Part shown: piece by piece, positions 6,423 through 41,834 of the stretch
Layout of the letters: every line of letters begins with the position of its first letter
Numbering within the stretch: the first letter of the stretch is position 1
Notes under the pieces: generated by a model
Database searches by the model: none
Told to the model about the DNA's origin: nothing
What the model saw: only the letters and a program-made list of their open reading frames with translations
Program-made: the position numbers and the translations under genes
From: a virus
Lineage: Duplodnaviria; Heunggongvirae; Uroviricota; Caudoviricetes
Reading direction: 5' to 3' (one strand)
IMG/VR virus record: IMGVR_UViG_3300031344_000001
Length of the DNA stretch: 64,000 nt

Positions 6423-6938
6423 TCAGCCTTCCTTCGTGTACTTCGTCCCGCGCGGCATGCGGTCCACGGGGGGTAGACCGTCGTGGCCCCGCGTCGAGTT
6501 GTAGTCCCACAGAGCGTCACGTCGAGCGTTGGGCAGGGGGCCGCGCACTCGCGTCGTGTAGCTGCCCACCTCCGCTGTCGGAGGGACCGTGACGACGTAG
6601 AGCTTCTTCATGGTCGCGTGCGCACGGGGGTTCTCCGCGCCACCAGCGTGCGCGGTGATCTTCGCGCGGGCGCGCGCACGGGAGGGAAACGTGCCGAGAT
6701 CGACCTCGTTGCTCGGTCCCCAGGACTTGTAGTCGACGCGGTGCCCGGTCGGCACCGTGACGATCCAGTAGGCGCCGTCCTTCGTCCGCACGTCCGCCGT
6801 GCCGAGGGCGTGGCTGCCGACGACGGGGCCCCACACGCTCCGAGGTGTCGAACGTTTGGTCGCGTGGCTCGTGGGCTTTCCCGCGAGAGCTTCGTTGATC
6901 TCGCGTTGGAGCTGGGCGTGCGTCTTCTTGGCCGTCAT
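6423..6938 (-). CDS. Hypothetical protein carrying N-terminal KKTxAQLxREIxEAL motif (motif copy 1)
   Basis: N-term MTAKKTHAQLQREINEALAGK; protein-like composition. Confidence 0.55.
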   Translation of the reverse strand: MTAKKTHAQLQREINEALAGKPTSHATKRSTPRSVWGPVVGSHALGTADVRTKDGAYWIVTVPTGHRVDYKSWGPSNEVDLGTFPSRARARAKITAHAGGAENPRAHATMKKLYVVTVPPTAEVGSYTTRVRGPLPNARRDALWDYNSTRGHDGLPPVDRMPRGTKYTKEG

Positions 6939-6990
6939 TGGTTATCCCGTCGAGTCTATCGAAGGCGGTAACAAAGCGCACATTTTTTGC

Positions 6991-7338
6991 TCACGAAGCG
7001 ACCCGCGCCTTCGCCGCGCGTTCGGCGTCGGCGTCACGGGGCGCGGGCGCGATCGAAGCGTCAGCCTCCGTGAGGTGCGCGTGCGCCGGGCAGAAGTCGC
7101 GTCCTCCCCGGTCCTCGCAGCGCCAGCCGTCCTTGTTCTCCGCGATGCACCGGATCAGGACGGCGTCGCGGTGTAGCGAGAAGGCCGTCTCGCAGCGACG
7201 GTCGAACAGCATCGTGCCGCCACAGAGCCGGCAGGCGACGCCGGTCACCGCAGAGGAGGTCGCGACCTCCGCCTGGCAGTCCGTGCAGTGCAGGAGCGCC
7301 GCGTCGCACGAGATCGTTGTCACCACCACGACGCTCAC
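6991..7338 (-). CDS. Cys-rich small protein (putative Zn-binding)
   Basis: GTG start; CDAALLHCTDC..CRLCGG..C..C pattern. Confidence 0.4.
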   Translation of the reverse strand: MSVVVVTTISCDAALLHCTDCQAEVATSSAVTGVACRLCGGTMLFDRRCETAFSLHRDAVLIRCIAENKDGWRCEDRGGRDFCPAHAHLTEADASIAPAPRDADAERAAKARVAS

Positions 7339-7375
7339 CCTACCGAGGCTCCGATCCTGATCGCAAGGTCCAAGA

Positions 7376-8020
7376 TCACGCGCGGACCTCGACGCGCATG
7401 TGCACCATCGTCACGCCGTCGAGCAGGGCTGCGGGCACGTCGAGCCGCACGCCGAGGGCTTTTGCCGCGAGCACGAACACCAGTGGGATCGGGCCGCCGG
7501 TCAGCGAGCCGAAGGCTTGGGCGCCCGCGAGCGCGGTCGCGTGCTCGATCTTCCGCAGGTCGACCAGCGCGATCGGCTTGGGCTCCGCGCCCGGGCCGAG
7601 CTCGCAGTTCTCTGGGGGTGAGACCACCATGTGGTAGCGGCAGACCGTGGGGCGGACCGCGTAGACCTCGCAGCGTCGGTCCGGTGTCAGGAACATGCAC
7701 GGGAGCTGGCGCTGGAAGAAGGCCACGCGCTCGCGCTCGTCGAGGACGTTGACGCCGGCGAACGCGGTGAGCTGCTTGACCAGCTCGCGCTCGAGCGCGG
7801 GGCGCCGCTGCTCCCAATCGCAGCGACTCGTGAGGTACTCGACGACCGGGACCATCTCCGGGATGGTCGCGGTCGCGGGCAGCGTGCAGCAGTGGGCGCA
7901 GCCCTCCTTGCAGGTCACGCCCATCGTGGCCACGGCCTCTGCGACGAGCGGCGCGTGCTCGCGGTAGAGCTGGAGCACCACCTTGCTGGCACGCTTCGCG
8001 CGGCGACCCTCTTGGCTCAC
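7376..8020 (-). CDS. YkgJ/UPF0153-family putative Fe-S or zinc-chelating protein
   Basis: CKEGCAHCC (CxxCxxCC) motif plus downstream Cys residues; GTGA overlap with the upstream gene; the N-terminal 150 aa of the long ORF is R-rich and rejected. Confidence 0.55.
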   Translation of the reverse strand: MSQEGRRAKRASKVVLQLYREHAPLVAEAVATMGVTCKEGCAHCCTLPATATIPEMVPVVEYLTSRCDWEQRRPALERELVKQLTAFAGVNVLDERERVAFFQRQLPCMFLTPDRRCEVYAVRPTVCRYHMVVSPPENCELGPGAEPKPIALVDLRKIEHATALAGAQAFGSLTGGPIPLVFVLAAKALGVRLDVPAALLDGVTMVHMRVEVRA

Positions 8021-8526
8021 GGGCGGCCCTCGGCGTCCCAGCGCTTCATCGCGGCGCGTTCGGTGGGACGATGGGCGGCGAAGGTCTCGGCGGAGATCGC
8101 GCGCCGCGTCGCCTCCTCGATCGCTTGCTCTCGAGGCAGTCCGGCGCCGCTGGCGCGCCGCCACTCGCGCGAGCCGTCGTCGTAGAAGCGCAGCTGGTAG
8201 ACGTAGAAACTGCGGCAGTCGTCGCTCTGCGGGCAGCCCGGGAGCCCGCAGCGAGCGGTGCAATGGGGGATGCGCAGCACGCGCACGCCGGATCGGAACT
8301 GCACGACCAGGCACCCTTCCATCCAGTAGTCCGGTCTCGTCACGAGCCACGAGCGTCTCGGTGGCCGTGCCGACCGCGTCGGGGTGAGTGGTAGTCGCGG
8401 AGCCGGCGGCAGGCAGCCGACGCAGAAGCAGTGCGCCCACACTCGGGAGTCCGCGCGCGGGCCGATGACGGGCACACCGCAGCGCTCGCACGCGCCGCGC
8501 GGCGTGCTTTGACGTGGAGAGGACAT
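8017..8526 (-). CDS. Cys-rich hypothetical protein
   Basis: CERCG..CFCVGC..HCTARCGLPGC; contains copy 1 of the 50-bp repeat in its coding sequence. Confidence 0.45.
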   Translation of the reverse strand: MSSPRQSTPRGACERCGVPVIGPRADSRVWAHCFCVGCLPPAPRLPLTPTRSARPPRRSWLVTRPDYWMEGCLVVQFRSGVRVLRIPHCTARCGLPGCPQSDDCRSFYVYQLRFYDDGSREWRRASGAGLPREQAIEEATRRAISAETFAAHRPTERAAMKRWDAEGRP

Positions 8527-8762
8527 CAGGACCCTTGGCAATGCTCGTGCTCGTAGTACGGGTTCGACACGTACGGCCTGTGGGACTTGCTGGGAGCGCG
8601 AGCGCTCGCCACGAGCTGGGCTCCGAGGATCCCCAGGGTTCCGAAGCCGATAAGGATGCCGAACATCTCGACGAGCACGTCGGGCTTCTTCGCGGAGTGC
8701 CCTTGCGGGTCCTCCACGACCTGACCGGCCTGAGTGGCGCCGTAGTACCCGCGTGCGTTCAT
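8526..8762 (-). CDS. Small membrane protein (1 TM)
   Basis: Hydrophobic stretch LVEMFGILIGFGTLGILGAQLVA. Confidence 0.4.
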   Translation of the reverse strand: MNARGYYGATQAGQVVEDPQGHSAKKPDVLVEMFGILIGFGTLGILGAQLVASARAPSKSHRPYVSNPYYEHEHCQGS

Positions 8763-8860
8763 TTTTTCATACTAGCGTTGGGTCGAGAGGATGTGTCGAA
8801 GTTTCATCGACGGAAACTGCACGACCAAGTCCCCTTCCATTCAGTAGTTCGGTTTCGTGG

Positions 8861-9208
8861 TCACGTCGGCGCCTTCGCTCCGCGCGGCTTCTTCTGGCCG
8901 CGGGCCACCTCGTGGGCCGCGAGGCGGGCGATCGTTTCGCTCGTGTTGTCGCCGATCCGGCACACGTAACACGTTGGAGGCGGTGGTCGCGGCGACCCGT
9001 CCCCACCGTCGACGCCCCAACCCGCCGTCGCCGGTCCGCCGCAGCTCGTGCAGACGGAGTCGTGCGATCGGAGCAGCCACCCGTTGCCGTGGCCGACGAC
9101 GGGGACGACGTCGCGACTGGAGTCATCGAAGCCGAAGCACCACGGGCAGCGGTTGGACGGACAGCGCGTGAAGTAGCCGTGGGGGCACTTCTCCGCTGAG
9201 AGGCTCAC
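8861..9208 (-). CDS. Cys-rich hypothetical protein
   Basis: [27 protein letters not shown]; stop adjacent to the DnaJ start. Confidence 0.4.
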
Positions 9209-10323
9209 CTCCGGGACCTCTTCTTACGCGGTCGATCGTCGCCGAGCGCCACGAACTCGCGCAGGAGATCCTCCTGCTTGGGGGACAGCTTCCGCGGCAC
9301 TTCGACGATGAAGCGGACCACGTGGTCACCACGCTCTCCTCCGCCGACGCTCGGGATGCCCTGGCCGCGACGATGCAACTCGTCGCCCGGCTGCGTGCCG
9401 GGACGCAACTCCAGGATCGCGGTCCCCGTGCAGTCGTCGTCGAGCGTGTCGACCTCGACCTCGCCGCCGAGCGCTGCTTGGGCGAAGCTGATCGTCACCT
9501 CGCTGGTGACGTCGCTGCCGTCGCGCGTGAAGCGCTCGTCTTCTTGGACGTGGAGGACGACGTGGAGGTCGCCGGAGGCGCCGCCGGGCACGCTCTCGCC
9601 CCTGCCGGAGACGCGGAGCGTTTGGCCGTCGTCGACGCCGGCTGGGACCGTCAAGGACAGCGTGGACTTCTCGGTCCGCGTGCCTCGCCCGCGGCAGTCC
9701 GGGCACGGGTCCTTGATCGTCTTCCCCGCGCCCTGGCAGTGCGGACACGTCGTCTGCACCATGAAGAAGCCTTGTGCGTGAGTGACCTGACCCTTGCCCT
9801 GGCACGCACGGCAAGGCTCGGGTTGCGCTGCGCCGCGCACGCCGGTCGCGCGACACGCCGCGCACCCCGCGGCGCGCGTGACCTCGACGTCCTTGCGCAC
9901 GCCCCACACGGCCTCGCGGAAGGTGAGCCTCAGGTCGAGGCGCAGGTCGGCACCGCGCGTCGGTCGGCGCGAGTTGCGACCAAAGAAGTCGCCGAACAAG
10001 TCGCCGAACGCCGAGAAGATGTCGTCGACGTTGTTGAAGCCGCCGCTGAACCCCGCCCCTGGTCCGTCGCCGGGGGCAGCGCCGCCGCGGCGGATCCCGT
10101 CGAAGCCGTGGCGGTCGTACGCAGCACGCTTGTCGGTGTCGGACAGGACCTGGTAGGCGTTCGCGGCCTCCTTGAACTTCTCCTCGGCGGTCTTGTCTCC
10201 CGGGCACTTGTCGGGGTGGTACAGCTGCGCGAGGCGGCGGTAGGCTTTCTTGAGGTCGGCTGGCGTCGCCGCGCGCGGGACGCCGAGCACCTCGTAGAGG
10301 TCGCGAGGCGCAGACGTGCTCAC
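9205..10323 (-). CDS. dnaJ: Molecular chaperone DnaJ (type I: J domain, G/F region, 4x CxxCxGxG zinc finger, C-terminal domain)
   Basis: J domain with HPD ([13 protein letters not shown]); [32 protein letters not shown] repeats; GTG start with GGAGG RBS. Confidence 0.9.
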
Positions 10324-10637
10324 GCCGTGCCTCCGGGAGCCTGCGGCTGGCGGAGGACCGCTCCCGCCTCGAGCTTGGGGATCGCCAACTCGCACGAGCG
10401 CAGCTCGATGAGGAGGTTCTGCGGCACGACCTGCGCCTTGCTCAGGACCTCGTCGACGAGGCGGCGGGGTTCCACGACGGCGGTCCGGAGCTTCGCCAGC
10501 TCAGTGTCTCGCTCGGCGCTTCGCGGTGGTGTCGCGGCGGTGATGAGCATGCAGGTTTTGGCCCACGCGACCTCGTCGATCAGGCGATCGATCAGCTCGC
10601 GCGACGGGCGGTTTGGGGGGTCGGAGCAGGCGGGCAT
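10320..10637 (-). CDS. Hypothetical protein, translationally coupled upstream of dnaJ
   Basis: GTGA overlap with dnaJ; protein-like composition. Confidence 0.45.
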
Positions 10638-10834
10638 TTGCTGGGGAGTCTACTCGGTGGAGGGTGGGAACCTGACACAGATCCGCGCCTCACCGCCATC
10701 GTTTCGATCCTGGGCCTTGCCATCACACCGAGTGCACGTTTGGAGGCGCCCTGCGCCCTGGCGCCTGGCGCCTCGGAGGTCAGCGGTCAGCGGGGTGCCG
10801 CGTGATCGCGTATAAGCGACCTTGAGCCGGCGCG
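10638..10834. promoter_or_regulatory. Divergent intergenic/promoter region
   Basis: 197-bp non-coding gap between divergent gene starts; contains tandem CTGGCGCC. Confidence 0.35.
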
Positions 10835-12172
10835 GTGCTGGCCGACGAGGAGCAGGAGATGCCGGAGCAGATCGAACAGCTCGACGCGACCCGAAGTGTC
10901 GCAGATCACCACGCTTGGTTCGTTGGAGAGCTGGACCGGCTCGCCAGCGCCGTCAAGCTGGACCCGACCCACGTACCGTCTGGGCTGCTCGAGATCATCG
11001 CGAACGCACGCGCGCACTCGGAGGCGCTCGTCGCGAACCCGCTGCACCGCGAGCCGATCGCGGTCGTCGGTGTTGACCCACGGACCGCGGGCATGATCGA
11101 GATGCACGCCGCGCTCGTCCAGTCGGCGCACGCCGAAGCGGCGCTCGCCGCGCCGAACAACGTCCCCCCGAAGCCCGACAGCTGGTTGCAGCGACTTCGT
11201 GACCGCATCTTCGGGCATGCCGAACCCAACGCTCAGCGCTACGGTGACTTCGACGTCCACTGGCTTGAAGCACTCGCCGAGCGCCTCACCGCGAAGAAGG
11301 CCGCCTTTTCGACGGCTCCTCCCGCCGACCTCGCGATCGGCGCGGGCAAGGTGCGGCTCGCGATCGTCGGTGACTGGGGAACCGGTCTGCCGGAGTCCGA
11401 CCTGATCGGCACGCACATGCTCGCGACCGATCCCGACTACACGATCCACCTCGGCGACGTCTACTACGCCGGGACGGTCCCCGAGGAGGAGCGCTACGTC
11501 GAGTTGTGGCCAGGCGCGCCCGGCAAGTCACTGTCGCTCAACTCCAACCACGAGATGTACAGCGGGGGTCACGGCTACTTCGAGGCGACTCTCGGGAGCG
11601 CGAAGTTCGCGCTCCAGCAGCACGCGAGTTACTTCGTGATGCGCCACGAGCACTTCCTGATCATCGGGCTCGACTCGGCGTACTACGCTGACGACTTCCT
11701 GTACCAGCAAGGCAACCTCGACGACGTCCAGCTGCGGTTCGTCCGCGAGCTCGCCGCGGCAAACCCAACCCGCAACATCGTCATCCTGACGCACCACCAC
11801 GGGCTCGACCTCGATAACGCGCCGACGCGGATGTGGAGCCAGGTGCTCGGCGCCGTCGGCCGGCCGTTCCTGTGGGTGTGGGGACACATCCACGCCGGCG
11901 TGGCGCACGAACCGCGGCCGTTCCCGTTCCCGGTGTTCGCACGCTGCGTCGGCCACGGAGGTGTGCCGCATTCGCCGTTCACTGCGGCCGAGGCGGCGAC
12001 GTATGCTTGGGCGGAAACGCGCCTCGCCGATGATCGCGACGAGGCGAAGCGCGCGCTCAACGGGTTCTACACGCTCGAGATCGACGGCGCCACGCTGACC
12101 GAGCGGTTCATCGACGAGCGCGGTGACGAGACGTACTCGTCGGTGGTGTTCCGCGGACCGCCGACGCGCTGA
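10835..12172 (+). CDS. Calcineurin-like metallophosphoesterase
   Basis: Motifs IVGDWGTG, HLGDVYYAG, NSNHE, LTHHHG, WGHIHAG. Confidence 0.8.
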   Translation: MLADEEQEMPEQIEQLDATRSVADHHAWFVGELDRLASAVKLDPTHVPSGLLEIIANARAHSEALVANPLHREPIAVVGVDPRTAGMIEMHAALVQSAHAEAALAAPNNVPPKPDSWLQRLRDRIFGHAEPNAQRYGDFDVHWLEALAERLTAKKAAFSTAPPADLAIGAGKVRLAIVGDWGTGLPESDLIGTHMLATDPDYTIHLGDVYYAGTVPEEERYVELWPGAPGKSLSLNSNHEMYSGGHGYFEATLGSAKFALQQHASYFVMRHEHFLIIGLDSAYYADDFLYQQGNLDDVQLRFVRELAAANPTRNIVILTHHHGLDLDNAPTRMWSQVLGAVGRPFLWVWGHIHAGVAHEPRPFPFPVFARCVGHGGVPHSPFTAAEAATYAWAETRLADDRDEAKRALNGFYTLEIDGATLTERFIDERGDETYSSVVFRGPPTR

Positions 12173-12180
12173 CGGGGGGC

Positions 12181-12528
12181 TCACCGCTTCGGTTCGTAGC
12201 AGCGCCCTCCGGCTCCGAGCGACGACCCGAGTTGCCCGCGGCGCCGCATCGATTCGAGCACCGAGCGCGTCCAGGTGCGCTGCCGCTCCTTGGTGGCCCA
12301 GCGGAAGTCCTCTGGCATGTGCGCCTGGCGCAGGTAGTCGGCGACGAGACCGACCGTCACGCATGGTTCTTTGCCCCCGACGGTCGCGTGTCGTCTGTAC
12401 GCGCCCTCGATGATCTCCGTCGCGCCGGCCTCGATTGCCGTGCGCACGGCGTCGGGGATCCGCTTTCGTGCAGCGTGCCTCGTGAGGGCTGCGGCAATCT
12501 CGGCGTCGAGTTGGGAAGTCTTGGTCAC
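12181..12528 (-). CDS. Hypothetical protein with N-terminal TKTSQLDAEIAAAL motif (copy 2)
   Basis: GTG start in GTGA overlap with the upstream gene. Confidence 0.5.
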   Translation of the reverse strand: MTKTSQLDAEIAAALTRHAARKRIPDAVRTAIEAGATEIIEGAYRRHATVGGKEPCVTVGLVADYLRQAHMPEDFRWATKERQRTWTRSVLESMRRRGQLGSSLGAGGRCYEPKR

Positions 12529-12974
12529 CGCTGCTTGCTCTTCGGTCGGACCCACAGGACGTCCACCTCCTCGACACCGTGGTCGGCGAGAACTGACAGC
12601 CGGTGGTTCCCGTCGATCACTCCACCGTGCTGGTCGATGACGATCGGCCAGGGTTCTTGGTGCTGGTAGACGATCAGCCCTTCGACTTGATCGTACCGCC
12701 TGAGGTTCTGGCGGACCTCCTTGGCGTCGCTGTCGGGATCCACCTCGTAGTCGAACCTCGACCCGGGGTCCAGGTCGTGGATCGGTACGCCGCGAACGAG
12801 GTCCCACGTGTACTTAGACGGGGATTTGAACTCGGGGAACTTGACGGCCTTCTTGATCAGGGCGCCGTAGGACTTTGGGTCGACGCGCTCTCTGTGGAGG
12901 GAGACCAGCCACTCCGGGGCGCTCAGGGCTTCGTCGATCTCGGCGTCGAGTTGCGAGGGCTTCTTGGGTGTCAT
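12525..12974 (-). CDS. ParB-like nuclease-domain protein with N-terminal motif (copy 3)
   Basis: N-term MTPKKPSQLDAEIDEAL; VIDGNHRLSVLADHG resembles the ParB/Srx DGxHR motif; ATGA overlap with the upstream gene. Confidence 0.45.
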   Translation of the reverse strand: MTPKKPSQLDAEIDEALSAPEWLVSLHRERVDPKSYGALIKKAVKFPEFKSPSKYTWDLVRGVPIHDLDPGSRFDYEVDPDSDAKEVRQNLRRYDQVEGLIVYQHQEPWPIVIDQHGGVIDGNHRLSVLADHGVEEVDVLWVRPKSKQR

Positions 12975-13306
12975 CGGTCTTCTGCTTCGGACGCGATCCA
13001 TTCCTGCATGTCCGCCTTCACAGCGCTCTCCGCGCAACTCTGCCAGGCATCACGCCACGCTCTGTAAGCGGCTCTCAGCTCGAGACCGCTCTTGAGGATC
13101 CCGTCAACGTCGGCTTGAGAGAGCCACTGATCGTACTGGTCCTCGTCGTTACCCCACGCTTCGCGCACGATCTTCTTGGCAGCTCCGCTGCCTTGCGGTT
13201 TGCCGAGGCGTTCCCAAGCGTCGTTGTGGTCGCTCGTGTTGAATACGTTGGCGCAGTCCTGGTAGCCGGTTCGGGCGAAGTCCCCGTAGTTTAGTCTGTC
13301 CCGCAT
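12971..13306 (-). CDS. Hypothetical protein (111 aa)
   Basis: ATG preceded by AGGAGA, encoded within the C-terminal tail of the upstream gene. Confidence 0.45.
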   Translation of the reverse strand: MRDRLNYGDFARTGYQDCANVFNTSDHNDAWERLGKPQGSGAAKKIVREAWGNDEDQYDQWLSQADVDGILKSGLELRAAYRAWRDAWQSCAESAVKADMQEWIASEAEDR

Positions 13307-13608
13307 TTGGATCTCCTAAGAGCCTCGGCGATCTCGGCGTCGAGGCGGGCCCGCGTCCTCTTCACCGGGGGCACCGGGGTCCGTGGCACGGTTTCCAGCG
13401 TCGCGTACTTCGGGTTCATGCGCATCTCGACGGTCTTCGCGACGCGCCCGCGGTCGACGATGCGCAGTCGTCGGTGGGCACCGGGGGGCTCGACCTCGTC
13501 GCCCTCGGCGTTGACCTCGACGCCGCGGATGAAGAGCACAGAGTCGCTGGTGACGCGTAGGATGAAGCGCGTGCCGTCGTCGAGCGTGACCTTCAGGTAG
13601 CGGATCAC
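13291..13608 (-). CDS. Hypothetical protein with C-terminal RARLDAEIAEAL motif (copy 4)
   Basis: GTGA overlap with the upstream gene; the motif is immediately followed by the RBS of the next gene. Confidence 0.45.
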   Translation of the reverse strand: MIRYLKVTLDDGTRFILRVTSDSVLFIRGVEVNAEGDEVEPPGAHRRLRIVDRGRVAKTVEMRMNPKYATLETVPRTPVPPVKRTRARLDAEIAEALRRSKCGTD

Positions 13609-14021
13609 GTGAGCCCCTGGGCCGCGAGGAGCTGCTGGACCTCGGCGCGCAGCGCGCCCACCTCGCGGTGCAGCTGTGACCGGGGCGTGTGAGGAAACAT
13701 CGGGGAGCCCAGGTTGGCGTCGAGGCCCGGGACCTCGACGTTGTCGACTTGGTCGTTCACGACCTTCGTGAGGCCGCCGAGCGCTCTCAGGCGATCGGCG
13801 GTCGGGGAGGGACCGACGGCCTCGACGGAGGCGCGGACGACCTCCAGCCGCCCTAGGCGGTACGCCTCGGAGGCGCGGACGCGGTCCGTCACGACCTCCG
13901 CCGCCGTGGACAGGGGGTCGCGGCGGTCGGTGTAGGACACCCTGCCTGCGCCGGACTCCTGCGCGGCGCGCGTCACGGCGATCTCGCGGTCGAGCTGGGC
14001 GGATTTCCGACGATCAGACAT
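13605..14021 (-). CDS. Hypothetical protein with N-terminal MSDRRKSAQLDREIA motif (copy 5)
   Basis: ATG at 14021 with AAGGAAGG RBS. Confidence 0.5.
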   Translation of the reverse strand: MSDRRKSAQLDREIAVTRAAQESGAGRVSYTDRRDPLSTAAEVVTDRVRASEAYRLGRLEVVRASVEAVGPSPTADRLRALGGLTKVVNDQVDNVEVPGLDANLGSPMFPHTPRSQLHREVGALRAEVQQLLAAQGLT

Positions 14022-14313
14022 CGGACCAGCCTTCCTTGCTCGCGAGGCCCTGCATGTAGCGACCGCCACGCCAGCGGTGCCACACCTCGACACGCGAGTG
14101 CTCCCCCTGACGCACGAGCTTCATTGCGGCGCGCTTCGCCGCAAGACGAGACCGAAATTCCGGTTCCAGCGGCTGCTCCTTGGTGTCGGTGAGGTAGAAG
14201 ACTCTTTCGTCGTCGCTGTCATCGTCAGACGTAGACGTGGACGCGGATCCCGCGAGCGCTGCGGCGATTTCGCGGCTGAGCTGTGTAGCGGACGTTTTCG
14301 AGCGCCTGTTCAT
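14014..14313 (-). CDS. Hypothetical protein with N-terminal RRSKTSATQLSREIAAAL motif (copy 6)
   Basis: GGGAGAAG RBS; Asp-rich segment SDDDSDDE. Confidence 0.5.
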   Translation of the reverse strand: MNRRSKTSATQLSREIAAALAGSASTSTSDDDSDDERVFYLTDTKEQPLEPEFRSRLAAKRAAMKLVRQGEHSRVEVWHRWRGGRYMQGLASKEGWSDV

Positions 14314-14315
14314 TG

Positions 14316-15023
14316 TCAGCTTCTCCCAGGGACAATCTTGATCCGCTTTGGATCGAAGATCACCCAGTCGTCGTCCAGATGGATGCTGTCGTAACCGAGG
14401 CTCTCCAACTCATCGAGGCTATGCCGGTCGTACTCGTCCCAACCCGCGGTCTTGTCAACGTGCAGAAGTGCCTTGATCAGATGCTTCGTGCTCACGGCAC
14501 CGCTTTCGCCGCGTAAGATCTTGTCCTTGTCCGTGCTAAACCAGAACACGCCCTGCGCTGAATAGCGCGGATCGAAGCGTCGGATCTGCACGTCGCTGCC
14601 GTGATACGCGGTGATGACGCGGGGATGTGATCTAACGAGGACTTTGGTCTCGCGCTTGAGCGTTGTTTCCGATGGCTGCCCCGTGAGTGCGGCGGCGACC
14701 TCGCGGTCAAGTTGGGAGGACGTCTTCTTCCTCAGCGAACTGTGCGATCTGGAAGATTCGGAGGCCCTACGGTACCACGCCGCGTCGACGACGTTGCCTT
14801 CGACGGCGATCGCGTGCAGCGGGCCGTGCTGACTGTTGGCCTCGGCGACGGCGTCGCGCTTCGTCGCGAAATCGTCGCCCGCCTCGTCAGCGTACGTCGT
14901 GATCTTGCCGGACGGGTAGAACACGTCGTAGTCCCACCGGCCGTTCAAGCGTCGGTGCACGCGCACCCGCAGCGAGTCGTGCCTGTCGCGGTAGACGTAG
15001 TCGGCGTGCTTGCGCGCGGTCAT
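14316..15023 (-). CDS. Hypothetical two-module protein with internal RKKTSSQLDREVAAAL motif (copy 7)
   Basis: Single 235-aa ORF; the motif sits at the junction of the N- and C-terminal modules; no ATG/GTG start at the junction. Confidence 0.5.
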   Translation of the reverse strand: MTARKHADYVYRDRHDSLRVRVHRRLNGRWDYDVFYPSGKITTYADEAGDDFATKRDAVAEANSQHGPLHAIAVEGNVVDAAWYRRASESSRSHSSLRKKTSSQLDREVAAALTGQPSETTLKRETKVLVRSHPRVITAYHGSDVQIRRFDPRYSAQGVFWFSTDKDKILRGESGAVSTKHLIKALLHVDKTAGWDEYDRHSLDELESLGYDSIHLDDDWVIFDPKRIKIVPGRS

Positions 15024-15355
15024 CTTCCGCCGGGAACGTCGAGTGCGACCTCACGCCCCATCGCACGGTAGTGAAGACGGCGTTCGTCGATGTTGTCTTG
15101 CACGTCCGGCGTGGGCGTCTCCTCGGCGTCGTCGAACTCGCCGCCGTTGTCCGAGATCGTGTAGCGCTCCTCGTCGTCCTCGTCCTCGTCCTCGTCGTCC
15201 TCGTCGTCGTCCTCGTCGTCGTCCTCGTCGTCGTCCTCGTCGTCGTCTTCGTCGTTGTCCGCATGCACCGAAACCGAGATCGTCACTGGCTGCTTCGCGG
15301 CGAGCGCGGCAGCGATCTCACGATCGAGTTGGGCGGCGGTCTTCTTACGCTTCAC
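15020..15355 (-). CDS. Motif-tagged protein with a 30-residue pure Asp/Glu tract (copy 8)
   Basis: N-term MKRKKTAAQLDREIAAAL followed by DEDDDEDDDEDDDEDDDEDDEDEDEDDEER; encoded by a (GTC/CTC)n trinucleotide repeat at 15163..15259. Confidence 0.5.
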   Translation of the reverse strand: MKRKKTAAQLDREIAAALAAKQPVTISVSVHADNDEDDDEDDDEDDDEDDDEDDEDEDEDDEERYTISDNGGEFDDAEETPTPDVQDNIDERRLHYRAMGREVALDVPGGR

Positions 15356-15393
15356 GGCGTCACGCTACCAGCACGGTAAGGCGGTGCTTACGT

Positions 15394-15660
15394 CTAGGGT
15401 TTCAGGATCAGGTCCACGAGTGTCCTGATATTGTCGTCGGTCGCTCCATTGAGGCGTGCCGCTACAATCGCCAGCCCCATCAAGTGTCCGGACAAACCGA
15501 AGAGGTCGTAGCAAGGGGCTGCGTCGCTGCGGGCCTCGCATTCATCGGTGCTGATCACGCACAGCCTGTGCAGCGTAGTCAGTTGGCTTTCGAGCAGTGC
15601 ACGGGTGTGATCGATGCTTTCGAGGCACTCTTCGATCTCGATCGCGGGTTCGGCGCTCAT
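15394..15660 (-). CDS. Hypothetical protein (88 aa)
   Basis: Protein-like, acidic; flanked by lower-GC intergenic DNA. Confidence 0.4.
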   Translation of the reverse strand: MSAEPAIEIEECLESIDHTRALLESQLTTLHRLCVISTDECEARSDAAPCYDLFGLSGHLMGLAIVAARLNGATDDNIRTLVDLILKP

Positions 15661-15765
15661 TGGCGTAGTGTCCTGGCAGGCGCTTCGATCCTCGATGAAT
15701 CAAGTGGCTTCCGATTCATGTTTTCACCTCGCTATGTATTCGAGCCTGAGAAGCGTGATCGGTGA

Positions 15766-16242
15766 TCAGCGCGGTCGCACCTCGGAGCGCTTCTTCCAGA
15801 TCTCGTGGCGACGCGGCGGTTCGCCAGTCCTCCTGGCCTCTTCGAGGTCGTACTTGAACGAATACTCGACGCGCACGCGCTTCGGTGTCGCGCGCACGAC
15901 GACTCCGGGCCGGTAGCCGTGGGCGCTCTTCCCCGAGTAGCTCGGCGATTTGAACGAGACCTTGTCGCCAGGCTGGTAGTCGCGCTCGGTGCTCTTCAGG
16001 TGCGGGATGAGGGCTGGCGAGGGGTTCGCGGCGGAGTAGCCGGCACCGAGCGAGAGGCCCTGGTTCTCGACGTAGCCCTTCCAGTGCACGAGCAGGCGCT
16101 CGGCGCTCGACACGGAGGCGCTGAGCGCGTGGGCGCCCCACTTGCCGCCGTCCATCACGATCTGATCGCCCTTGCGGTAGAGCTGGAGGCCGCCGGGCTT
16201 GGGGAGTGTTGCGATCAGGTTGTCGGCTTCGGTGTTGGTCAT
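15766..16242 (-). CDS. Hypothetical protein (158 aa)
   Basis: ORF track; balanced composition. Confidence 0.5.
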   Translation of the reverse strand: MTNTEADNLIATLPKPGGLQLYRKGDQIVMDGGKWGAHALSASVSSAERLLVHWKGYVENQGLSLGAGYSAANPSPALIPHLKSTERDYQPGDKVSFKSPSYSGKSAHGYRPGVVVRATPKRVRVEYSFKYDLEEARRTGEPPRRHEIWKKRSEVRPR

Positions 16243-16245
16243 GAC

Positions 16246-16488
16246 CTAGTTACCCCAGTCGAGGGCGTCGTAGTTCGTCGAGTAGGCCGCCGTCGCGCCG
16301 ACCGAGGTCGACGTACCGCGTCGGATCCCGACGGCGCCGTCGTCCTCGACCCAGGTGGCGTGACTTTCTGGATCGATCTGCGCGTGGTTCTGCGGCTCGG
16401 TTTCGTCGGCACCGTAGTAGAAGCGCGCCCTGGCGGCGCTGCCGTCACGGTAGTTGAGGAAGCCCGTCTTGGCTCGAAGCGCGCCCAT
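16246..16488 (-). CDS. Small hypothetical protein
   Basis: ORF track; protein-like. Confidence 0.35.
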   Translation of the reverse strand: MGALRAKTGFLNYRDGSAARARFYYGADETEPQNHAQIDPESHATWVEDDGAVGIRRGTSTSVGATAAYSTNYDALDWGN

Positions 16489-16498
16489 CGGGGGGATC

Positions 16499-17074
16499 TT
16501 ACCGCGGAGGCCGGGCCAGGTCTCTTTTTGGATCAGGCGGCTGGGCGACCTCCGCGAGGGAGAGCGCGACGCGCCGGAGCAGCCCCGCGGTCTCGACCCG
16601 CGCGCCGGACCACTTGCTCTCGCGGGGCCCGGCGATGAGCAGCCTTGTCGGGATGGGGTTGAGAGGTGCCCCGAGCAGAGGCAACGGCAGCGTCTTCGTC
16701 ATCATCATCAGGTCGCTCCAGATCCAGCGCGCGACCCGCGCCGGATCGCACGTCGGGTCGACGATCAGGCGGGGGAGGTGACGTCCGGCTGCGAGGTCGA
16801 TCGTCTTGGCGGTGCCGGGTGTCACCCGTGGGTCGTCGGCGTCGTGGACCACGATCAGCGCAGCGCTCGCCCTCTGTACGTTGGCCTCGGTGCGCGCGGC
16901 GTAGCTGGTCTTGTCGTGCAGCGTGAGGAACCGCGCGACGGCCTCCGGGATCTTGCCGCGCTCGTCGCGGCCGTCGCGCGGCATGTAGCCCGTGACGAGC
17001 CAGCCGTTGTCGAGGGCGGCCTCGTGCGCGCCGCGGTCGACACCCGTCTGTCCGCCATGCACGACTGTGATCAT
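16499..17074 (-). CDS. SLOG/putative molybdenum-carrier-like Rossmann protein (LOG/DprA-like)
   Basis: N-term MITVVHGGQTGVDRGAHEAALDNGW matches the GGQTGVD signature as I recall it. Confidence 0.5.
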   Translation of the reverse strand: MITVVHGGQTGVDRGAHEAALDNGWLVTGYMPRDGRDERGKIPEAVARFLTLHDKTSYAARTEANVQRASAALIVVHDADDPRVTPGTAKTIDLAAGRHLPRLIVDPTCDPARVARWIWSDLMMMTKTLPLPLLGAPLNPIPTRLLIAGPRESKWSGARVETAGLLRRVALSLAEVAQPPDPKRDLARPPR

Positions 17075-17550
17075 GGGGTCTTCGCCTCCGCCACTGCCTC
17101 GACGCTCCTCGTCGTCGTCGTGTCCTTCGCCTGGTAGCCGATCGCGCAGAGGACCTCGGCCTCGGCAGCCCGGTGCGCTTGCTCCGCCACGGCAAGAGTG
17201 GTCTTCGCGTCCTCGATCGCGCGTGCTGTCGACTGGAGACGTTGGAGCGCCGTGGCGGGCAGCCTCCGCGCGCGCAGGTCCAGCTCGGCGAGTGCCGTCA
17301 GGATGTCACGGCACGCGAGGTGCCCGAGGCCGTCGCGATCTAGGGCGCCGACTTGGCGCGTGGCGTTCGCGAGGGCTTCGGCAACCTGGCCCCTCGTGAC
17401 GAGGACGAGCGCGTGGTCCGGGTCGATCAGTAGCCTCAGCGCCTCGGCGGGCGGGAATCGTGAGCGCTCGCCGACAGCGCGCTGGCGCGGACTCCTGGAG
17501 CACGTCGTCCGGTTGTGCCCGTCCTCGCGGCAGAGGGCGCACTTCATGGC
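17071..17550 (-). CDS. CCHC zinc-knuckle protein
   Basis: ATGA overlap; CALCREDGHNRTTC (C-x2-C-x4-H-x4-C). Confidence 0.45.
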   Translation of the reverse strand, partial: AMKCALCREDGHNRTTCSRSPRQRAVGERSRFPPAEALRLLIDPDHALVLVTRGQVAEALANATRQVGALDRDGLGHLACRDILTALAELDLRARRLPATALQRLQSTARAIEDAKTTLAVAEQAHRAAEAEVLCAIGYQAKDTTTTRSVEAVAEAKTP

Positions 17551-17810
17551 AGGGCCCTGCCCAGGTCGCGCTCGAGTCGCGCGCGCTTCGCCGCGCGGTC
17601 GTCCTCGTCGCCCGTGTCGCTGTTGACGTGGATTGTCGGTGCGACGTGCAGCTCGACGCGGCAGAGCGCCCCGCCGACGTTCGCCAGGCACAACCAGCGC
17701 CCGTCGAACGTCTTCAGCGCCTTGCCGACGTAGCGGATGCCAGTTGACTCGTCGACGACGCCGTCGACGTCGATCTCGGTCGCGTCGGCGTTCGTAGTGA
17801 CTTCCACCAT
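17544..17810 (-). CDS. Small acidic hypothetical protein
   Basis: ATG with strong AAGGAGAAG RBS. Confidence 0.45.
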   Translation of the reverse strand: MVEVTTNADATEIDVDGVVDESTGIRYVGKALKTFDGRWLCLANVGGALCRVELHVAPTIHVNSDTGDEDDRAAKRARLERDLGRALP

Positions 17811-17829
17811 CAGCGCTTCTCCTTGATGA

Positions 17830-18117
17830 TCACGAGGCACGCGTCCCTGATCGGGAGGGCAGTGTCCAGCCGTTCACGAGGTACGTGCGCGGCGTGTCAT
17901 CCCGCAGCGGTGGCAGCGTCTCAGCGGGCTCGCCGTCGTAGTGCCGCTGTATGGCGCCGCAGGCAGGGCACCACAGGATCGCGAGCCCGGTGAGCGGCTC
18001 GGGTGGGACGGTGTCGAGGGAGAACGTGCCTGCGATCCAGCTCGGGCGGTCGTGGGCACAGAGGTCCTTGATCCGGTTGTCACCCATCGCTTTTGCTCCA
18101 TGGGCGGAGGCGTTCAT
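17830..18117 (-). CDS. Small hypothetical protein (CxxC)
   Basis: ATGA overlap with the upstream gene; WCPACG. Confidence 0.4.
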   Translation of the reverse strand: MNASAHGAKAMGDNRIKDLCAHDRPSWIAGTFSLDTVPPEPLTGLAILWCPACGAIQRHYDGEPAETLPPLRDDTPRTYLVNGWTLPSRSGTRAS

Positions 18118-18515
18118 CGCAGCACAACTTTGATCACGTCCGTCTTCGCGTTCATTGACGATTCGATGCCGCTGCCGCTGTTCGCAGTCAGTTCTCCGGT
18201 CTTCACGAACAAGCGCTGTGCGCCGAGGTAACCGCCATGGCCTGCGTTGTCGCCCGACACAGGCCAATAGATGAAGTGTTCCCCACGCGCCAGGGCGCCA
18301 AACTTGAGCTTCTGGTCTGACATCGTTTGCACCGCGGGTTTTTGATCGGGCTCGTCGTCGAGGACTTCTCCGATGTCCCAGGGCGTAACTTGCTCCTCGG
18401 GTCCGTCGGCATAGCGCACGCGGTCGTCTTCGCCGTCGGGCGTGACCTTGGTGACGACGGCGATTCGCCCGTCGCGCATGCGGACGCGCGTCCCGGGACT
18501 CGGCATGAAGCTCAT
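18114..18515 (-). CDS. Hypothetical protein (133 aa)
   Basis: Start at MSFMPSPGTRV; the upstream part of the long ORF is R-rich and rejected. Confidence 0.45.
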   Translation of the reverse strand: MSFMPSPGTRVRMRDGRIAVVTKVTPDGEDDRVRYADGPEEQVTPWDIGEVLDDEPDQKPAVQTMSDQKLKFGALARGEHFIYWPVSGDNAGHGGYLGAQRLFVKTGELTANSGSGIESSMNAKTDVIKVVLR

Positions 18516-18784
18516 GGCTCGACGCTCCTGGTGGCGATCGCCCGCTGGTACGCCTCGGGCGCGTGTTCGACGCCCCAGTGCGCGCGCGTCACCCACTCGA
18601 TGAACTGAGATGCGAGGCTCTTGCCCGCGCCGGTCGCGGCGTCGATCGCGGCGTTGATCGGCACTGTCACGGCGCAGATCTCGAGGCCGGTCGCGGCGGT
18701 GAACTGCTCGCGCATCTGCGGCTCGTTCCACGCCCACAGGACGAAGTCCCGCCAACCGATCGCGTTCAGGTCGTCGAGGGTCAC
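18512..18784 (-). CDS. Hypothetical protein (90 aa)
   Basis: ATGA overlap with the downstream gene; protein-like. Confidence 0.45.
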   Translation of the reverse strand: MTLDDLNAIGWRDFVLWAWNEPQMREQFTAATGLEICAVTVPINAAIDAATGAGKSLASQFIEWVTRAHWGVEHAPEAYQRAIATRSVEP

Positions 18785-18993
18785 TTTTTGGTCTCACGGC
18801 CGGCCCCGCGCAGGAAGCTCTCCTGTCGGAGTCGGAGCTGCTGCTCCTCGTCGTGACCTTCGCGCAGGAGAGCACGCCGCTCGCGCTGCTTCTCCTCGTT
18901 CGCGAGGCGCGCGCGCTGCGCGCGCCTCGCGCCGTCGGCCCTGGTCGCGGACACGAGCTGCGTTGCGCGCAGGGCTTCTTGCAGGGATGACAA
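18781..18993 (-). CDS. Small charged coiled-coil-like protein (TTG start)
   Basis: AAGGAGAA RBS 7 nt upstream of TTG; avoids overlap with the upstream gene. Confidence 0.3.
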   Translation of the reverse strand: MSSLQEALRATQLVSATRADGARRAQRARLANEEKQRERRALLREGHDEEQQLRLRQESFLRGAGRETKK

Positions 18994-19012
18994 GCGTGGT
19001 TCTCCTTGAGGG

Positions 19013-19582
19013 TTACGTGAAGCGGCGGAGTGATCCGTCCGCTGCGCGCTCGAGACGGATCTTCTCGTCATTGTACAGCGTGCGTGCCTCGACGCTCTTG
19101 CCGTGGTCCCAGGTCACGATCGCCGTGCCCTCGTACGAACTCCCGATCGTGAAGTTCGTGTACTTGACCTTGTCGCCTGGTCGGAGCGTACGGGCCACCT
19201 TGGGCGCAGGTTCGACGCGGGTGGTGGGTATGGGCTCTTGGTGTGCGTGCTTTGGGATCGGTGGCGATCCTGGGGGCAGGGTCACCGTGATCGAGACCCA
19301 CTCGTCGACGACCTCGGTGCGGGCCTTCGCGCCAGGTACCGCCGCTTCGATCTCCTTGGCCTTCGTCCTAGCGAACTGGACCGTCCCGGGGTCGGCACGT
19401 CCTTCGACGATGTCGCCTTCGTCGCGAGACGTGAAGTGAAGTTGGTTGTCCGCATCGTCGTAAGCTTCTTCCTCGTCGAAGCCCGTCGATCGCATGAGGC
19501 GGCGGACCACCTCAAGCGCGCTCGGGCCGCTGGGACCGGCAGGTGGATTCTTCTTGCGCGTGCGTGCTTGCGTGGTGCTCAT
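19013..19582 (-). CDS. Hypothetical protein (189 aa)
   Basis: ATG with GGAG RBS; ATGA overlap with the upstream gene. Confidence 0.5.
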   Translation of the reverse strand: MSTTQARTRKKNPPAGPSGPSALEVVRRLMRSTGFDEEEAYDDADNQLHFTSRDEGDIVEGRADPGTVQFARTKAKEIEAAVPGAKARTEVVDEWVSITVTLPPGSPPIPKHAHQEPIPTTRVEPAPKVARTLRPGDKVKYTNFTIGSSYEGTAIVTWDHGKSVEARTLYNDEKIRLERAADGSLRRFT

Positions 19583-19827
19583 GGTGACTCCTCGGCGATC
19601 CTGCGTTCGACAAGCCCTCGGCGGAGGACCGCCCACCCCTCGCGGTCCGCCTTGGTGAGGGCGCGCCGCGCCGCGGCGGCCCATGTCTCGTGGCCGCGCG
19701 TCGTGTAGAGGACCACGCCGGTCTCGATGTTGCGATCGTCGACCTCGTAGAGGCGCGCGTCACGTTCGCCCGATCGAAAGGGGACGCGCGACGTCCGCTG
19801 GTGCACGCGCAGCTCGACGCGCTTCAC
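19579..19827 (-). CDS. Small hypothetical protein
   Basis: GTG start with GGAGG RBS. Confidence 0.45.
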   Translation of the reverse strand: MKRVELRVHQRTSRVPFRSGERDARLYEVDDRNIETGVVLYTTRGHETWAAAARRALTKADREGWAVLRRGLVERRIAEESP

Positions 19828-20165
19828 GCGGGCCTCCCCGTCGCGGCTCCAACGGCGTCGCGCAGCTCGCTCGCCGTGAGGTCCCTCGTGCCCTCGTTCA
19901 GGACGAACTCGGTCTTACCGCCGCGCGCGAAGTAGATGTTGGTCGTGCGTGGGCCGACGGTGACGCGCAGGTCGGTGCTCGGCAGCGCGTAGCGCGCTCG
20001 CCCCCCGAGTGTCCGGTGCTCACCGCCGGTTCCGCCGTAGATCGGCGACCGCCTCGTCGGGATCCGCACGACCTCCTCGCGTGTCGCGCCCGCCGGAGTG
20101 AAGCCCAGCTCCAGGAGCGTCGTGACGACCTCGTCGACGGTCACGGCTCGTCCCTGAGCTTGCAA
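19824..20165 (-). CDS. Hypothetical protein (113 aa)
   Basis: ORF track; protein-like. Confidence 0.45.
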   Translation of the reverse strand: MQAQGRAVTVDEVVTTLLELGFTPAGATREEVVRIPTRRSPIYGGTGGEHRTLGGRARYALPSTDLRVTVGPRTTNIYFARGGKTEFVLNEGTRDLTASELRDAVGAATGRPA

Positions 20166-20380
20166 GCGGCGCCACGGACCTCCGTGGCGACGTCGGCCGC
20201 GCGCTCGGCGTCGGCCGTCCCCGCGATGTAGGCCGTCAGCTTCTTGGGAGGAAACCAGTCGCGGAACATCATGGTGACCTGGTGGGGCTCGTAACCGGCA
20301 GCGTACATGCGTACGCGGAGCGTGTCCCTGTAGGCGCGCGCCGTGTCGGGGTGGTTGAAGCGCAAGAACGCGGCCTTCAT
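20141..20380 (-). CDS. Small hypothetical protein
   Basis: ATGA overlap with the upstream motif gene; its RBS GAGGAG lies inside the upstream C-terminus. Confidence 0.45.
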   Translation of the reverse strand: MKAAFLRFNHPDTARAYRDTLRVRMYAAGYEPHQVTMMFRDWFPPKKLTAYIAGTADAERAADVATEVRGAACKLRDEP

Positions 20381-20715
20381 CGGGGAGACTCCTCGCCGAG
20401 CGCCTCGGCGATCTCGGCGTCGAGTTGCGCGGGGGTCTTCGTCTCAGTGGCCTGGGGCGCCTTCCTCGCGCGCCACCAAGCGTTCAGCGCTGACTGGAGG
20501 GAGGGGAACGTCGATGGGAACGCCCGGTCGGTGTGCGGCGCGAGCCACTTCTCGATCCGGTAGCGCCTGCCCTTCGGGCCCAGCCAGGCGTGGCCGACGT
20601 GCTGGAACAGGTCGTTGTCGGGCGTCCACCAGAACCCGGGCAAGACGCTGTGGAGGACGATCGGGTGCGTGGCGCCGCGGGGACCGACGTGGAATGTCCG
20701 GCGCTGCTCGGCCAT
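20377..20715 (-). CDS. Hypothetical protein with C-terminal KTPAQLDAEIAEAL motif (copy 9)
   Basis: Trp-rich body; the motif is the last 20 aa. Confidence 0.5.
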   Translation of the reverse strand: MAEQRRTFHVGPRGATHPIVLHSVLPGFWWTPDNDLFQHVGHAWLGPKGRRYRIEKWLAPHTDRAFPSTFPSLQSALNAWWRARKAPQATETKTPAQLDAEIAEALGEESPR

Positions 20716-24448: not shown

Positions 24449-24670
24449 TCAACAGGACCTTTCGACAGGGGACAGGTTAGCGCCCATGCTTCGCAGCCGC
24501 GCGGTCTCCAGGAGCATCGGCGATGGCGGGACACAGCTTCCGGCACGCGACTTCGCTTCGCCTTCCGCCGTGTAGTACGTCAGCTGGCCTGTTCGGCCGC
24601 CGCCATAGCCGCTGCGAACAGTTCCGCAGTTGGCGCAAGCGTCGTTTTCGTTCCAGCGGTGGCGCGTCAT
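24449..24670 (-). CDS. Small zinc-ribbon protein
   Basis: ATGA overlap with the RNA ligase stop; CANCG..C. Confidence 0.35.
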   Translation of the reverse strand: MTRHRWNENDACANCGTVRSGYGGGRTGQLTYYTAEGEAKSRAGSCVPPSPMLLETARLRSMGANLSPVERSC

Positions 24671-41616: not shown

Positions 41617-41834
41617 TGGAGGGGGAGTCCCTTCCGAGCGCAGACGTCCTGGACGAAGGGGAGGGGCAGCTCGGCGATCGTCGCGATCCGGTCGGCGGTG
41701 CACACGGCCTCGCCCTCGTGGTAGGCGACGGTGCGCCATGCGCGCGCGACGGCGGCCTCTCGCGCGAGGATCCTCGCGGCTTCGTTCGCCGAGCTGTCGC
41801 CGGTCTCCTGCGCGACCTGGTTGATCGACTTCAC
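41613..41834 (-). CDS. Small hypothetical protein
   Basis: GTGA overlap; GGAGG RBS. Confidence 0.35.
   Translation of the reverse strand: MKSINQVAQETGDSSANEAARILAREAAVARAWRTVAYHEGEAVCTADRIATIAELPLPFVQDVCARKGLPLQ

Follow-up and report, generated by a model that had tools for sequence, protein, structure and literature searches.

A conserved peptide tag in nine unrelated genes

The same short peptide was found, in frame, in nine otherwise unrelated small proteins encoded by a single stretch of viral DNA (IMG/VR record IMGVR_UViG_3300031344_000001, Caudoviricetes), the whole 64,000 nucleotides of which are referred to here as the window. This peptide tag recurs on hundreds of further small proteins from metagenomes, is maintained by selection on its amino acid sequence, and may serve as a portable docking signal. 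It is a lineage-specific feature of these uncultivated, high-GC (guanine plus cytosine), huge phage-like elements.

The window was scanned in six frames with a pattern consisting of the core Q-L-[DSQ]-x-E-[IV] plus flanks, and the codons were listed; the tag core as given below is 14 codons long, from K to L. Exactly nine copies were found, all on the minus strand and in frame in called genes, in agreement with the number and positions of copies in the original prediction. A profile hidden Markov model (HMM) was built from them, as had been suggested there, and run against the six-frame translation of all 64 kb. It gave its own members 30.7-38.1 bits and the next fragment 4.3 bits. The gap between 30.7 and 4.3 bits indicates that the nine copies are a discrete set, with no graded tail or compositional continuum below them; by our own estimate, about 1e-4 matches of 30 bits would be expected by chance in the approximately 128,000 translated residues. 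In independent gene calls on the same element, which is found in several public assemblies (longest contig, 461 kb), 9 of the 32 genes between 6423 and 20715 are tagged, and every copy is in frame.

The gene calls also bear out the distribution of copies claimed at the outset, with six N-terminal, two C-terminal and one internal at a two-module junction. For each gene, all on the minus strand, we give in brackets its coordinates and those of its tag core, with the HMM score of the core. The 171-residue g6423 (6423..6938; core KTHAQLQREINEAL, 6885..6926, 38.1 bits) begins with the tag and carries SHATKR 12 residues on and a second such sequence, RAHATMKK, near residue 107. In g12181 (12181..12555, 124 residues as called; core TKTSQLDAEIAAAL, 12484..12525, 30.7 bits) the true start is likely the GTG at 12528, which overlaps the g12525 stop; the orthologue in the related locus L188 begins at the equivalent GTG, and with this start the tag is N-terminal. 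The 149-residue g12525 (12525..12974; core KKPSQLDAEIDEAL, 12924..12965, 33.8 bits) joins the tag to a ParB/sulfiredoxin (Srx)-fold module with a DGxHR motif. The tag of g13605 (13605..14021, 138 residues; core RKSAQLDREIAVTR, 13968..14009, 33.3 bits), which is the most degenerate copy, precedes a module of no assigned family, and that of the 99-residue g14014 (14014..14313; core TSATQLSREIAAAL, 14254..14295, 30.7 bits) precedes a module that recurs in the fusions described below. In g15020 (15020..15355, 111 residues; core KTAAQLDREIAAAL, 15302..15343, 35.7 bits) the module contains a run of about 35 Asp/Glu residues; it has no family match and could be a DNA mimic or a histone-chaperone-like module.

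Two proteins consist of a module followed by a C-terminal tag, namely g13291 (13291..13608, 105 residues; core RTRARLDAEIAEAL, 13318..13359, 32.4 bits) and g20377 (20377..20715, 112 residues; core KTPAQLDAEIAEAL, 20398..20439, 33.9 bits), and this placement is conserved in their respective homologues P0014 and P0035. The former gene overlaps the start of the untagged next gene (12971-13306, minus strand) by 16 nt in a different frame, and the stop of the latter overlaps the ATG of the untagged gene at 20141-20380 (minus strand). In both cases the tag ends only a few codons short of, or overlaps, the beginning of an untagged, out-of-frame downstream gene. The internal copy is in the 235-residue g14316 (14316..15023; core KTSSQLDREVAAAL, 14685..14726, 35.8 bits, with SRSHSS just before it), which is composed of an N-module, a disordered linker, the tag helix, a second linker and a C-module with an ADP-ribosyltransferase (ART) fold. 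When the nine proteins were compared in an all-versus-all BLASTP search with the tag masked, the best match had E=0.08 and was one of acidic low complexity, as expected from the earlier claim that the proteins have nothing in common outside the tag.

Selection on the peptide

The nine window tags have a mean DNA identity of 68% (range 55-83%), with identical runs of at most 23 nt, and their differences are concentrated at the third codon position (126, 139 and 218 at positions one, two and three). Among 35 distinct tags from seven elements, all synonymous codons occur at each position and the residues are 90-100% conserved; the tag serine is encoded across elements by six different codons, from both the TCN and the AGY families. 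This free synonymous variation, together with the coding-strand, in-frame placement of the copies, shows that selection acts on the peptide, as had been proposed from the first inspection of the codons. The copies are neither nucleotide-identical recent duplications nor the first helix of one homologous fold.

These data bear directly on the idea that the tag is a nucleotide-level element, such as a recombination site, a translational operator at gene starts or a selfish repeat, with the peptide as its by-product. Module fusions and deletions do fall exactly at the tag, the majority of copies are at gene 5' ends, and tags are enriched in otherwise rare A/T-ending codons. However, the low DNA identity and short identical runs, the use of every synonymous codon at positions where the residue hardly changes, and the invariably coding-strand, in-frame location of the copies all run counter to such an element, and a start-site operator is ruled out by the internal and C-terminal copies. 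On this codon evidence, a DNA- or RNA-level element was rejected as extremely improbable; the window also gave no tRNA and no Rfam match.

The original prediction had also pointed to the use of CAA as the tag glutamine codon in a GC-rich genome. The excess itself was confirmed, with CAA at 5 of 8 tag positions versus 16% of the 191 glutamine codons in 17 window genes. Its interpretation as a sign of common descent was not, since GAT, GAA, ATT and CTT are raised in tags as well; across elements CAA accounts for only 13 of 33. A shift toward A/T is common at the 5' ends of genes, and the CAA excess may equally reflect the 5'-end position of most tags.

Structure of the tag and its flanks

The consensus of the tagged metagenome proteins is [M or H-A-T]-[KR]-K-K-[TS]-[PA]-A-Q-L-D-[RA]-E-I-A-E-A-L-A-x-P. 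In an AlphaFold2 model of g14316 (42 homologues) the tag is an isolated helix, residues 102-114, with a predicted local distance difference test score of 70-83. The N-module is moderately confident and residues 71-97 are disordered; past the tag, a low-confidence linker leads to a very confident C-module. The tag is likewise a helix, residues 6-18, in the predicted structure of g12525. The conserved Ser/Thr-Pro-Ala-Gln fits a putative helix N-cap pattern, and L, I and L would lie on one face with Ala around them. The amphipathic helix behind a basic KK/RR patch that had been anticipated from the letters is therefore borne out by the predicted helix in g14316.

In the PDB, the tag profile is matched best by designed coiled coils of EIAKALR heptads, of which the REIAEAL of the tag is one example, and this suggests that the tag helix is built for packing against other helices. 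It might then be a minimal coiled-coil heptad through which the tagged proteins homo- or hetero-oligomerize into one body, with no need for a dedicated receptor. The profile also retrieves the PTR repeats of tail fibres ('TEAEIDAALSGK..SHTH'), among them those of a 501-residue metagenome tail-fibre protein (P0206, repeats '..DDRYYTEAEIDAALSGKANASHTH..') whose repeat superficially resembles the tag plus an H-x-T motif. Homology of the tag to this 24-residue phage tail repeat (Pfam PF12789) was rejected, since hhalign with 217 tag instances gave a probability of only 24% over 12 columns, and the resemblance is probably convergent. This weakens the case for self-association, as do the near-invariant polar Q, D and E, which suggest a specific heterologous interface, and the length of the helix, whose one and a half heptads do not by themselves suffice for a stable coiled coil. 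We consider self-association very unlikely.

A second motif, H-[AS]-T, accompanies the tag: with positions numbered relative to the tag, its enrichment is about 12-fold from -10 to -6 and 3-6-fold from +15 to +24. Internal tags often read R-H-H-A-T-K-K-S-P-A-Q-L-D-R-E-I-A-E-A-L, and the flanking motif often has the form R-x-H-A-T-[KRM]; g6423 carries it as ...EALAGKPTSHATKR. It may mark a site of cleavage or take part in docking itself.

Its presence on both sides of the tag is one of several features that would suit a proteolysis signal, either a degron that times the loss of early host-takeover proteins or a site at which a phage peptidase cuts mini-polyproteins. The tag lies in disordered linkers at module junctions, and N-terminal copies start with M-[TASP]-K-K, much like an internal copy cut after H-A. 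Moreover, the window encodes a candidate SprT-like, zincin-type metallopeptidase (32697-33464, minus strand; HExxH intact as LIHELAHL), which is a possible processing peptidase for the tagged proteins, and zincin-like peptidases release the domains of polyvalent proteins (PMC5512222). The Pfam match of this candidate is, however, under the cut-off (20.3 versus 25.6 bits). About 70% of tags are terminal, where cleavage would have nothing to separate, and fourteen nearly invariant residues exceed the needs of most cleavage sites or degrons. A primarily proteolytic role is thus judged to be quite unlikely.

Several more specific identities were also rejected. The processing after L-D-x-E that the original prediction had raised found no supporting sign. 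I-A-E, which would match the (L/I)-x-E site of the T4 prohead protease, does occur, yet no more than 61% of all copies, and 4 of the 9 in the window, have Glu at that position. A Sec or Tat signal peptide is inconsistent with a helix that holds D, R, E and E and has neither a hydrophobic core nor a twin arginine, as well as with the internal and C-terminal copies. The tag is not a beta-clamp-binding motif (Q-L-[SD]-L-F or Q-L-x-L-x-L), because positions 4-6 are [RA]-E-I in 98-100% of copies and the hydrophobic residues needed at positions 4 and 5 are therefore missing. A membrane-targeting helix was rejected from the sequence itself.

Distribution of the tag

A HMMER search of 1.84 billion metagenome cluster representatives placed the tag in at least 193 protein clusters (50% identity) at E<=1e-3; this is a minimum, since so short a motif (15 residues) hardly attains significance. 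Small proteins that carry the peptide on unrelated bodies were also retrieved from metagenomes with a profile of short tag-containing segments. The 182 tags counted in 175 of these proteins were N-terminal in 114 cases (63%), internal in 54 (30%) and C-terminal in 14 (8%).

A degenerate 30-nt DNA pattern was used to find tagged loci in metagenomes, IMG/VR and GTDB species genomes. In JGI metagenomes it detected at least 114 loci. Among the loci listed, about 80 have true tags, and these 80 or so together contain 167 tags in 406 kb, one per 2.4 kb; L085, L101, L102, L165 and L182 were excluded from the set as false positives. Tags can be very dense: at locus L073, 10 occur in a row within 5.9 kb, and in 20-kb samples of two contigs of 302 and 205 kb (L009 and L010; 61-65% GC), 21 of 80 genes are tagged. 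In some arrays of the related contigs of 200-460 kb, about a quarter of the genes carry the tag.

Outside such elements the tag was rarely seen. When GTDB was searched with one genome per species, 56 loci were found, and all but one were chance partial matches without the basic patch and the Ser/Thr cap; the sole exception is a 9-kb contig (L033) of a metagenome-assembled genome of Chloroflexota, and no GTDB locus is multi-copy. IMG/VR gave one true match, and another (L012) was discarded as a chance QLDGEIAAAL within a Mu-like prohead protease. Among cultured phages and plasmids, no match was obtained by megablast of a 15-kb region or by tblastn of a tag-plus-ART protein; tblastn of the 22-residue consensus was also negative, a weak result in that a 15-residue match sits near the E-value limit. 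Neither 50 kb of Caulobacter phage CcrBL9 (in its ORFan-rich arm) nor 290 kb of the uncultured phage LR745208.1 contains the tag. Scans of the window and of the tagged metagenome proteins with Pfam, NCBIfam and PHROG gave no model that includes the tag, and no paper describing it was found in literature searches by tag strings or keywords; the suspicion that it lies outside any described family was thus well founded.

Cargo of the tag and module exchange

Tagged proteins have 32-350 residues and consist of one or two modules. The shortest is a tag-only open reading frame (ORF) of 32 residues (P0011; L072, 133-231) that shares 4 nt with the gene after it; like the two C-terminal window tags beside untagged genes, it may be a product of gene fission or have a function. 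No Pfam domain at all was detected in about 94% of 135 tagged representatives. Matches were made to only 10 Pfam families, each in one or two of the 135, and none was a peptidase domain. The domains found behind the tag elsewhere include a Fis-type helix-turn-helix (HTH_8), DUF5661, a DnaJ-like zinc finger, GNAT, sigma-70 region 4 and ParB_N. In the g12525 family the tag is kept in 17 of 17 orthologues at 59-72% identity, and its residues Q, L, E and L vary no more than the catalytic core does.

Homologues of g14316 indicate that modules are exchanged at the tag. Its N-module is joined via the tag to at least five different C-modules: the acidic module of g15020 (P0045), the g14014 module (P0053 and P0056), the ParB-like g12525 module (P0052, with a truncated and a complete tag in tandem) and two further modules (P0048 and P0051). 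Its ART C-module, in turn, occurs alone behind an N-terminal tag (P0044, P0047, P0049, P0054 and P0058) and behind two other N-modules (P0042 and P0043). Distant low-GC relatives of this C-module are multi-domain, polyvalent-like and untagged. In locus L176 the g20377 module runs on through the tag into an additional module. The gene at 19013-19684 (minus strand) of the window and that at 895-1404 of L010 have homologous N-modules, with a junction tag in L010 and PKHAHQEP, without a helix, in the window; the pair illustrates how a tag can be gained or lost between modules.

Genome context

The window consists of long co-directional arrays of small overlapping ORFs, mostly without family. The best link to named phages is a 688-residue protein (43182-45248, minus strand) that belongs to no Pfam or PHROG family. 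Full-length homologues (30-35% identity) are present in jumbo phages (Bertelyvirus) of Caulobacter (CcrBL9, BL47, RB23, C1 and C2) and of Brevundimonas, and in the 485-kb LR745208.1, which has at least four more genes in common with the window and its flank. A multi-pass membrane protein (41831-42799, minus strand) is 79% identical to positions 8934-9401 of IMG/VR contig L011, where a tagged gene is located upstream of tail-fibre and tail-spike genes, and at locus L135 a collagen-like tail-fibre protein is encoded within the tag array. Given the homologues of the 688-residue protein and these tail genes, the element is most likely a huge phage.

The element apparently supplies a sigma factor of its own, a 570-residue protein of the sigma-70 family (2107-3819, plus strand) with regions 2, 3 and 4 and an N-terminal extension of about 340 residues; a 699-residue relative is encoded by the tag-rich locus L088. 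A complete type-I DnaJ (J domain, zinc finger and C-terminal domain; 9205-10395, minus strand) lies inside the tagged-gene array, and the 288-kb relative L188 keeps the same order (cpYpsA, tagged genes, DnaJ, CxxCxxCC protein). The cpYpsA (SLOG-type) protein (16499-17074), a radical-SAM protein (22783-23580), an RNA-ligase-like protein (24667-25320), a metallophosphoesterase (27173-27889; PHROG 1649, E=7e-38) and an SPFH/Band-7 protein (31425-32426; PHROG 200, E=3e-58) are all encoded on the minus strand and untagged, and constitute an accessory set typical of large phages. Other recognisable window genes encode a VWA protein, ParB-like proteins and metallophosphoesterases. An integrase and an SNF2 helicase are encoded just beyond the window.

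Possible function of the tag

Since most tags are terminal, a pure cleavage site cannot account for them, and the internal and C-terminal copies together with the codon pattern make a start site or DNA element insufficient; what remains is a portable docking peptide with a common partner. We tentatively favor, as a possible rather than a probable reading, a position-independent cargo-docking peptide that most likely loads effector modules into the virion. Virion loading is preferred because of the types of cargo, the arrangement in arrays, a pace of shuffling such as arms-race effectors should show, and the precedent of the capsid-targeting sequence (CTS) of T4. With regard to cargo, ART and DdrB-like ParB are hallmarks of the polyvalent proteins of phages, for which packaging and injection are predicted or known; Alt of T4 and DdrB of P1, for instance, are carried in the phage head (PMC5512222). 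The ART and ParB/Srx modules of the window would thus fit injected effectors.

By this account, a lineage of huge phage-like elements attaches the tag, made up of a basic patch, a Ser/Thr-Pro helix cap and a 12-13-residue amphipathic helix (PAQLDREIAEALA) with disordered linkers around it, to many unrelated small effector modules, all of which would be handled by one common receptor. The tag would dock a module, or a two-module mini-polyprotein, to an internal component of the assembling virion, and the docked modules would be packaged and then delivered along with the DNA. The flanking H-A/S-T motifs may be maturation-protease sites at which modules are freed and the tag is removed. As the same in-frame sequence lies between floppy linkers in every case, recombination or fusion at the tag could swap modules without breakage, and such swapping would drive the observed diversification. 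The single receptor, the virion loading and the cleavage at H-A/S-T are parts of this scheme that we infer.

A number of observations weigh against it. No receptor, scaffold, capsid, portal, terminase or prohead protease was found in the roughly 150 kb of related sequence inspected, so that the identification of the element as a phage is indirect. Related jumbo phages are without the tag, which is therefore not tied to machinery universal in that group. Insertion sequence transposases and a weak NikA-like match in relatives make a megaplasmid or phage-plasmid possible. A fold could be assigned to only 2 of the 9 window cargoes, and H-A/S-T stands beside just about a quarter to a third of tags, with cleavage at it a conjecture from sequence. 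The tag consensus KK[TS]PAQLD[RA]EIAEAL has no sequence similarity to the T4 CTS, which moreover is N-terminal only, whereas 38% of tag copies are internal or C-terminal. Finally, at the tag frequencies seen in L009, L010 and L073, virion loading implies an unusually large packaged proteome.

Such frequencies would fit a cellular route better than capsid space, and they are among the arguments for an intracellular sorting signal, an address label for a phage-built compartment, a replication factory or a phage or host hub, with no packaging involved. Position independence and a basic patch followed by a helix are like classical sorting signals, many of the modules are related to nucleic acids (ParB/Srx, HTH_8, sigma-70 region 4, ParB_N and GNAT), and nucleus-forming jumbo phages sort hundreds of proteins (PMC11087766). 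On the other hand, no shell, importer or compartment gene was identified here, and the large replication and transcription enzymes of the window and flank (sigma factor, SNF2 helicase, RNA ligase and DnaJ) are untagged. The chimalliviruses, furthermore, have no linear signal and import proteins via a folded surface patch (PMC11087766). Sorting of this kind, with no loading into virions, is in our view unlikely, if less so than the alternatives considered above.

The docking of cargo to a common partner can also be stated more broadly, so as to embrace either destination. The tag would then be the first sequence-defined sorting signal of a bacteriophage lineage, by which a phage-encoded receptor routes hundreds of ORFan modules to one destination (the virion interior for co-injection, or a phage-built compartment), with H-A/S-T releasing the cargo and the tag acting as an in-frame recombination joint. 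To this combined proposal we would give slightly less than an even chance. No linear sorting signal has been found so far in the jumbo phages studied (PMC11087766). Huge phages are rich in genes of no assigned function, and a tag on at least 193 unrelated families would imply a common fate for their products. If it is indeed a sorting label, the tag alone defines from sequence the routed proteome of these huge phages, and it is also a peptide bait with which its receptor could be identified. Should it act in packaging or sorting, foreign proteins could be loaded by means of it, as has already been done with the T4 CTS. Shuffling at one conserved in-frame joint shows a route of phage effector diversification, and the tag system connects separately encoded small effectors with the giant polyvalent proteins of other mobile elements.

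Comparison with known systems

The T4 CTS, about 10 residues long (MKTYQEFIAE), is like the tag a short amphipathic peptide on diverse, fast-evolving small proteins, which in T4 are anti-defence proteins, encoded in arrays. It is the sole feature common to the internal defence proteins IPI, IPII and IPIII of T4 and their hypervariable T-even relatives, and it brings them to the prohead core, so that they are packaged and injected (PMC3012670). Loading of the tagged proteins into virions is proposed here by analogy. The CTS is removed by the prohead protease after Glu, while the candidate motif here is H-A/S-T, and the tagged families outnumber those with a CTS by one to two orders of magnitude.

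The polyvalent proteins described by Iyer, Burroughs, Anand, de Souza and Aravind in 2017 (PMC5512222) have part of their domain vocabulary, of ART-PolyVal type and ParB/Srx nuclease-like, in common with the tagged proteins, and the same logic, joint delivery of many effector activities, has been proposed for them. They carry 2-15 domains on one giant polypeptide, however, usually with an embedded zincin-like peptidase. In the elements studied here the modules are instead mostly encoded by small one- or two-module genes, each with its own tag and without an embedded peptidase domain; the sole candidate peptidase is the separate SprT-like gene at 32697-33464. The tag has no counterpart in the description of polyvalent proteins.

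Like the chimalliviruses, a jumbo phage with such tags would have to sort a large subset of its proteins to one destination. No conserved linear signal was found for PicA-dependent nuclear import in chimalliviruses, in which a folded surface patch is recognised (PMC11087766). Here, by contrast, there is a linear signal without an identified destination.

The polymorphic toxins offer a parallel for the joint. Their junction motifs, VENN in CdiA and PxxxxDPxGL in Rhs, border the constant part and the interchangeable C-modules and mark the crossover point at which cassettes from neighbouring arrays are swapped in; in Rhs the motif is also a cleavage site. Polymorphic toxins are large secreted bacterial proteins with immunity genes, whereas most tag cassettes are genes in their own right, with the tag at their beginning, and belong to a phage-like genome in which paired immunity genes are not evident.

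In its architecture the tag resembles the cargo-loading peptides of microcompartments and encapsulins, short amphipathic helices that are flexibly linked to one or the other end of unrelated enzymes and dock them to a shell. The tag is similarly an isolated helix between low-confidence linkers, and is terminal in most copies. The microcompartment peptides are weakly conserved, and the encapsulin motif is different and mostly C-terminal, while the tag is near-invariant over 14 residues. Such peptides also serve a handful of cargoes encoded beside shell genes; no shell gene (BMC-H/P or HK97-fold encapsulin) was found among the Pfam and PHROG matches of about 40 window and flank proteins or the Pfam labels of the loci, where most ORFs are matchless and the window covers 64 kb of a contig of up to 461 kb. 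The tag would work like a targeting peptide yet belongs to no family with which it was compared. A shared address peptide on unrelated cargo is a known principle; what is unusual here is the near-invariance over 14 residues, the independence of position, the scale, and the role of the peptide as a recombination joint.

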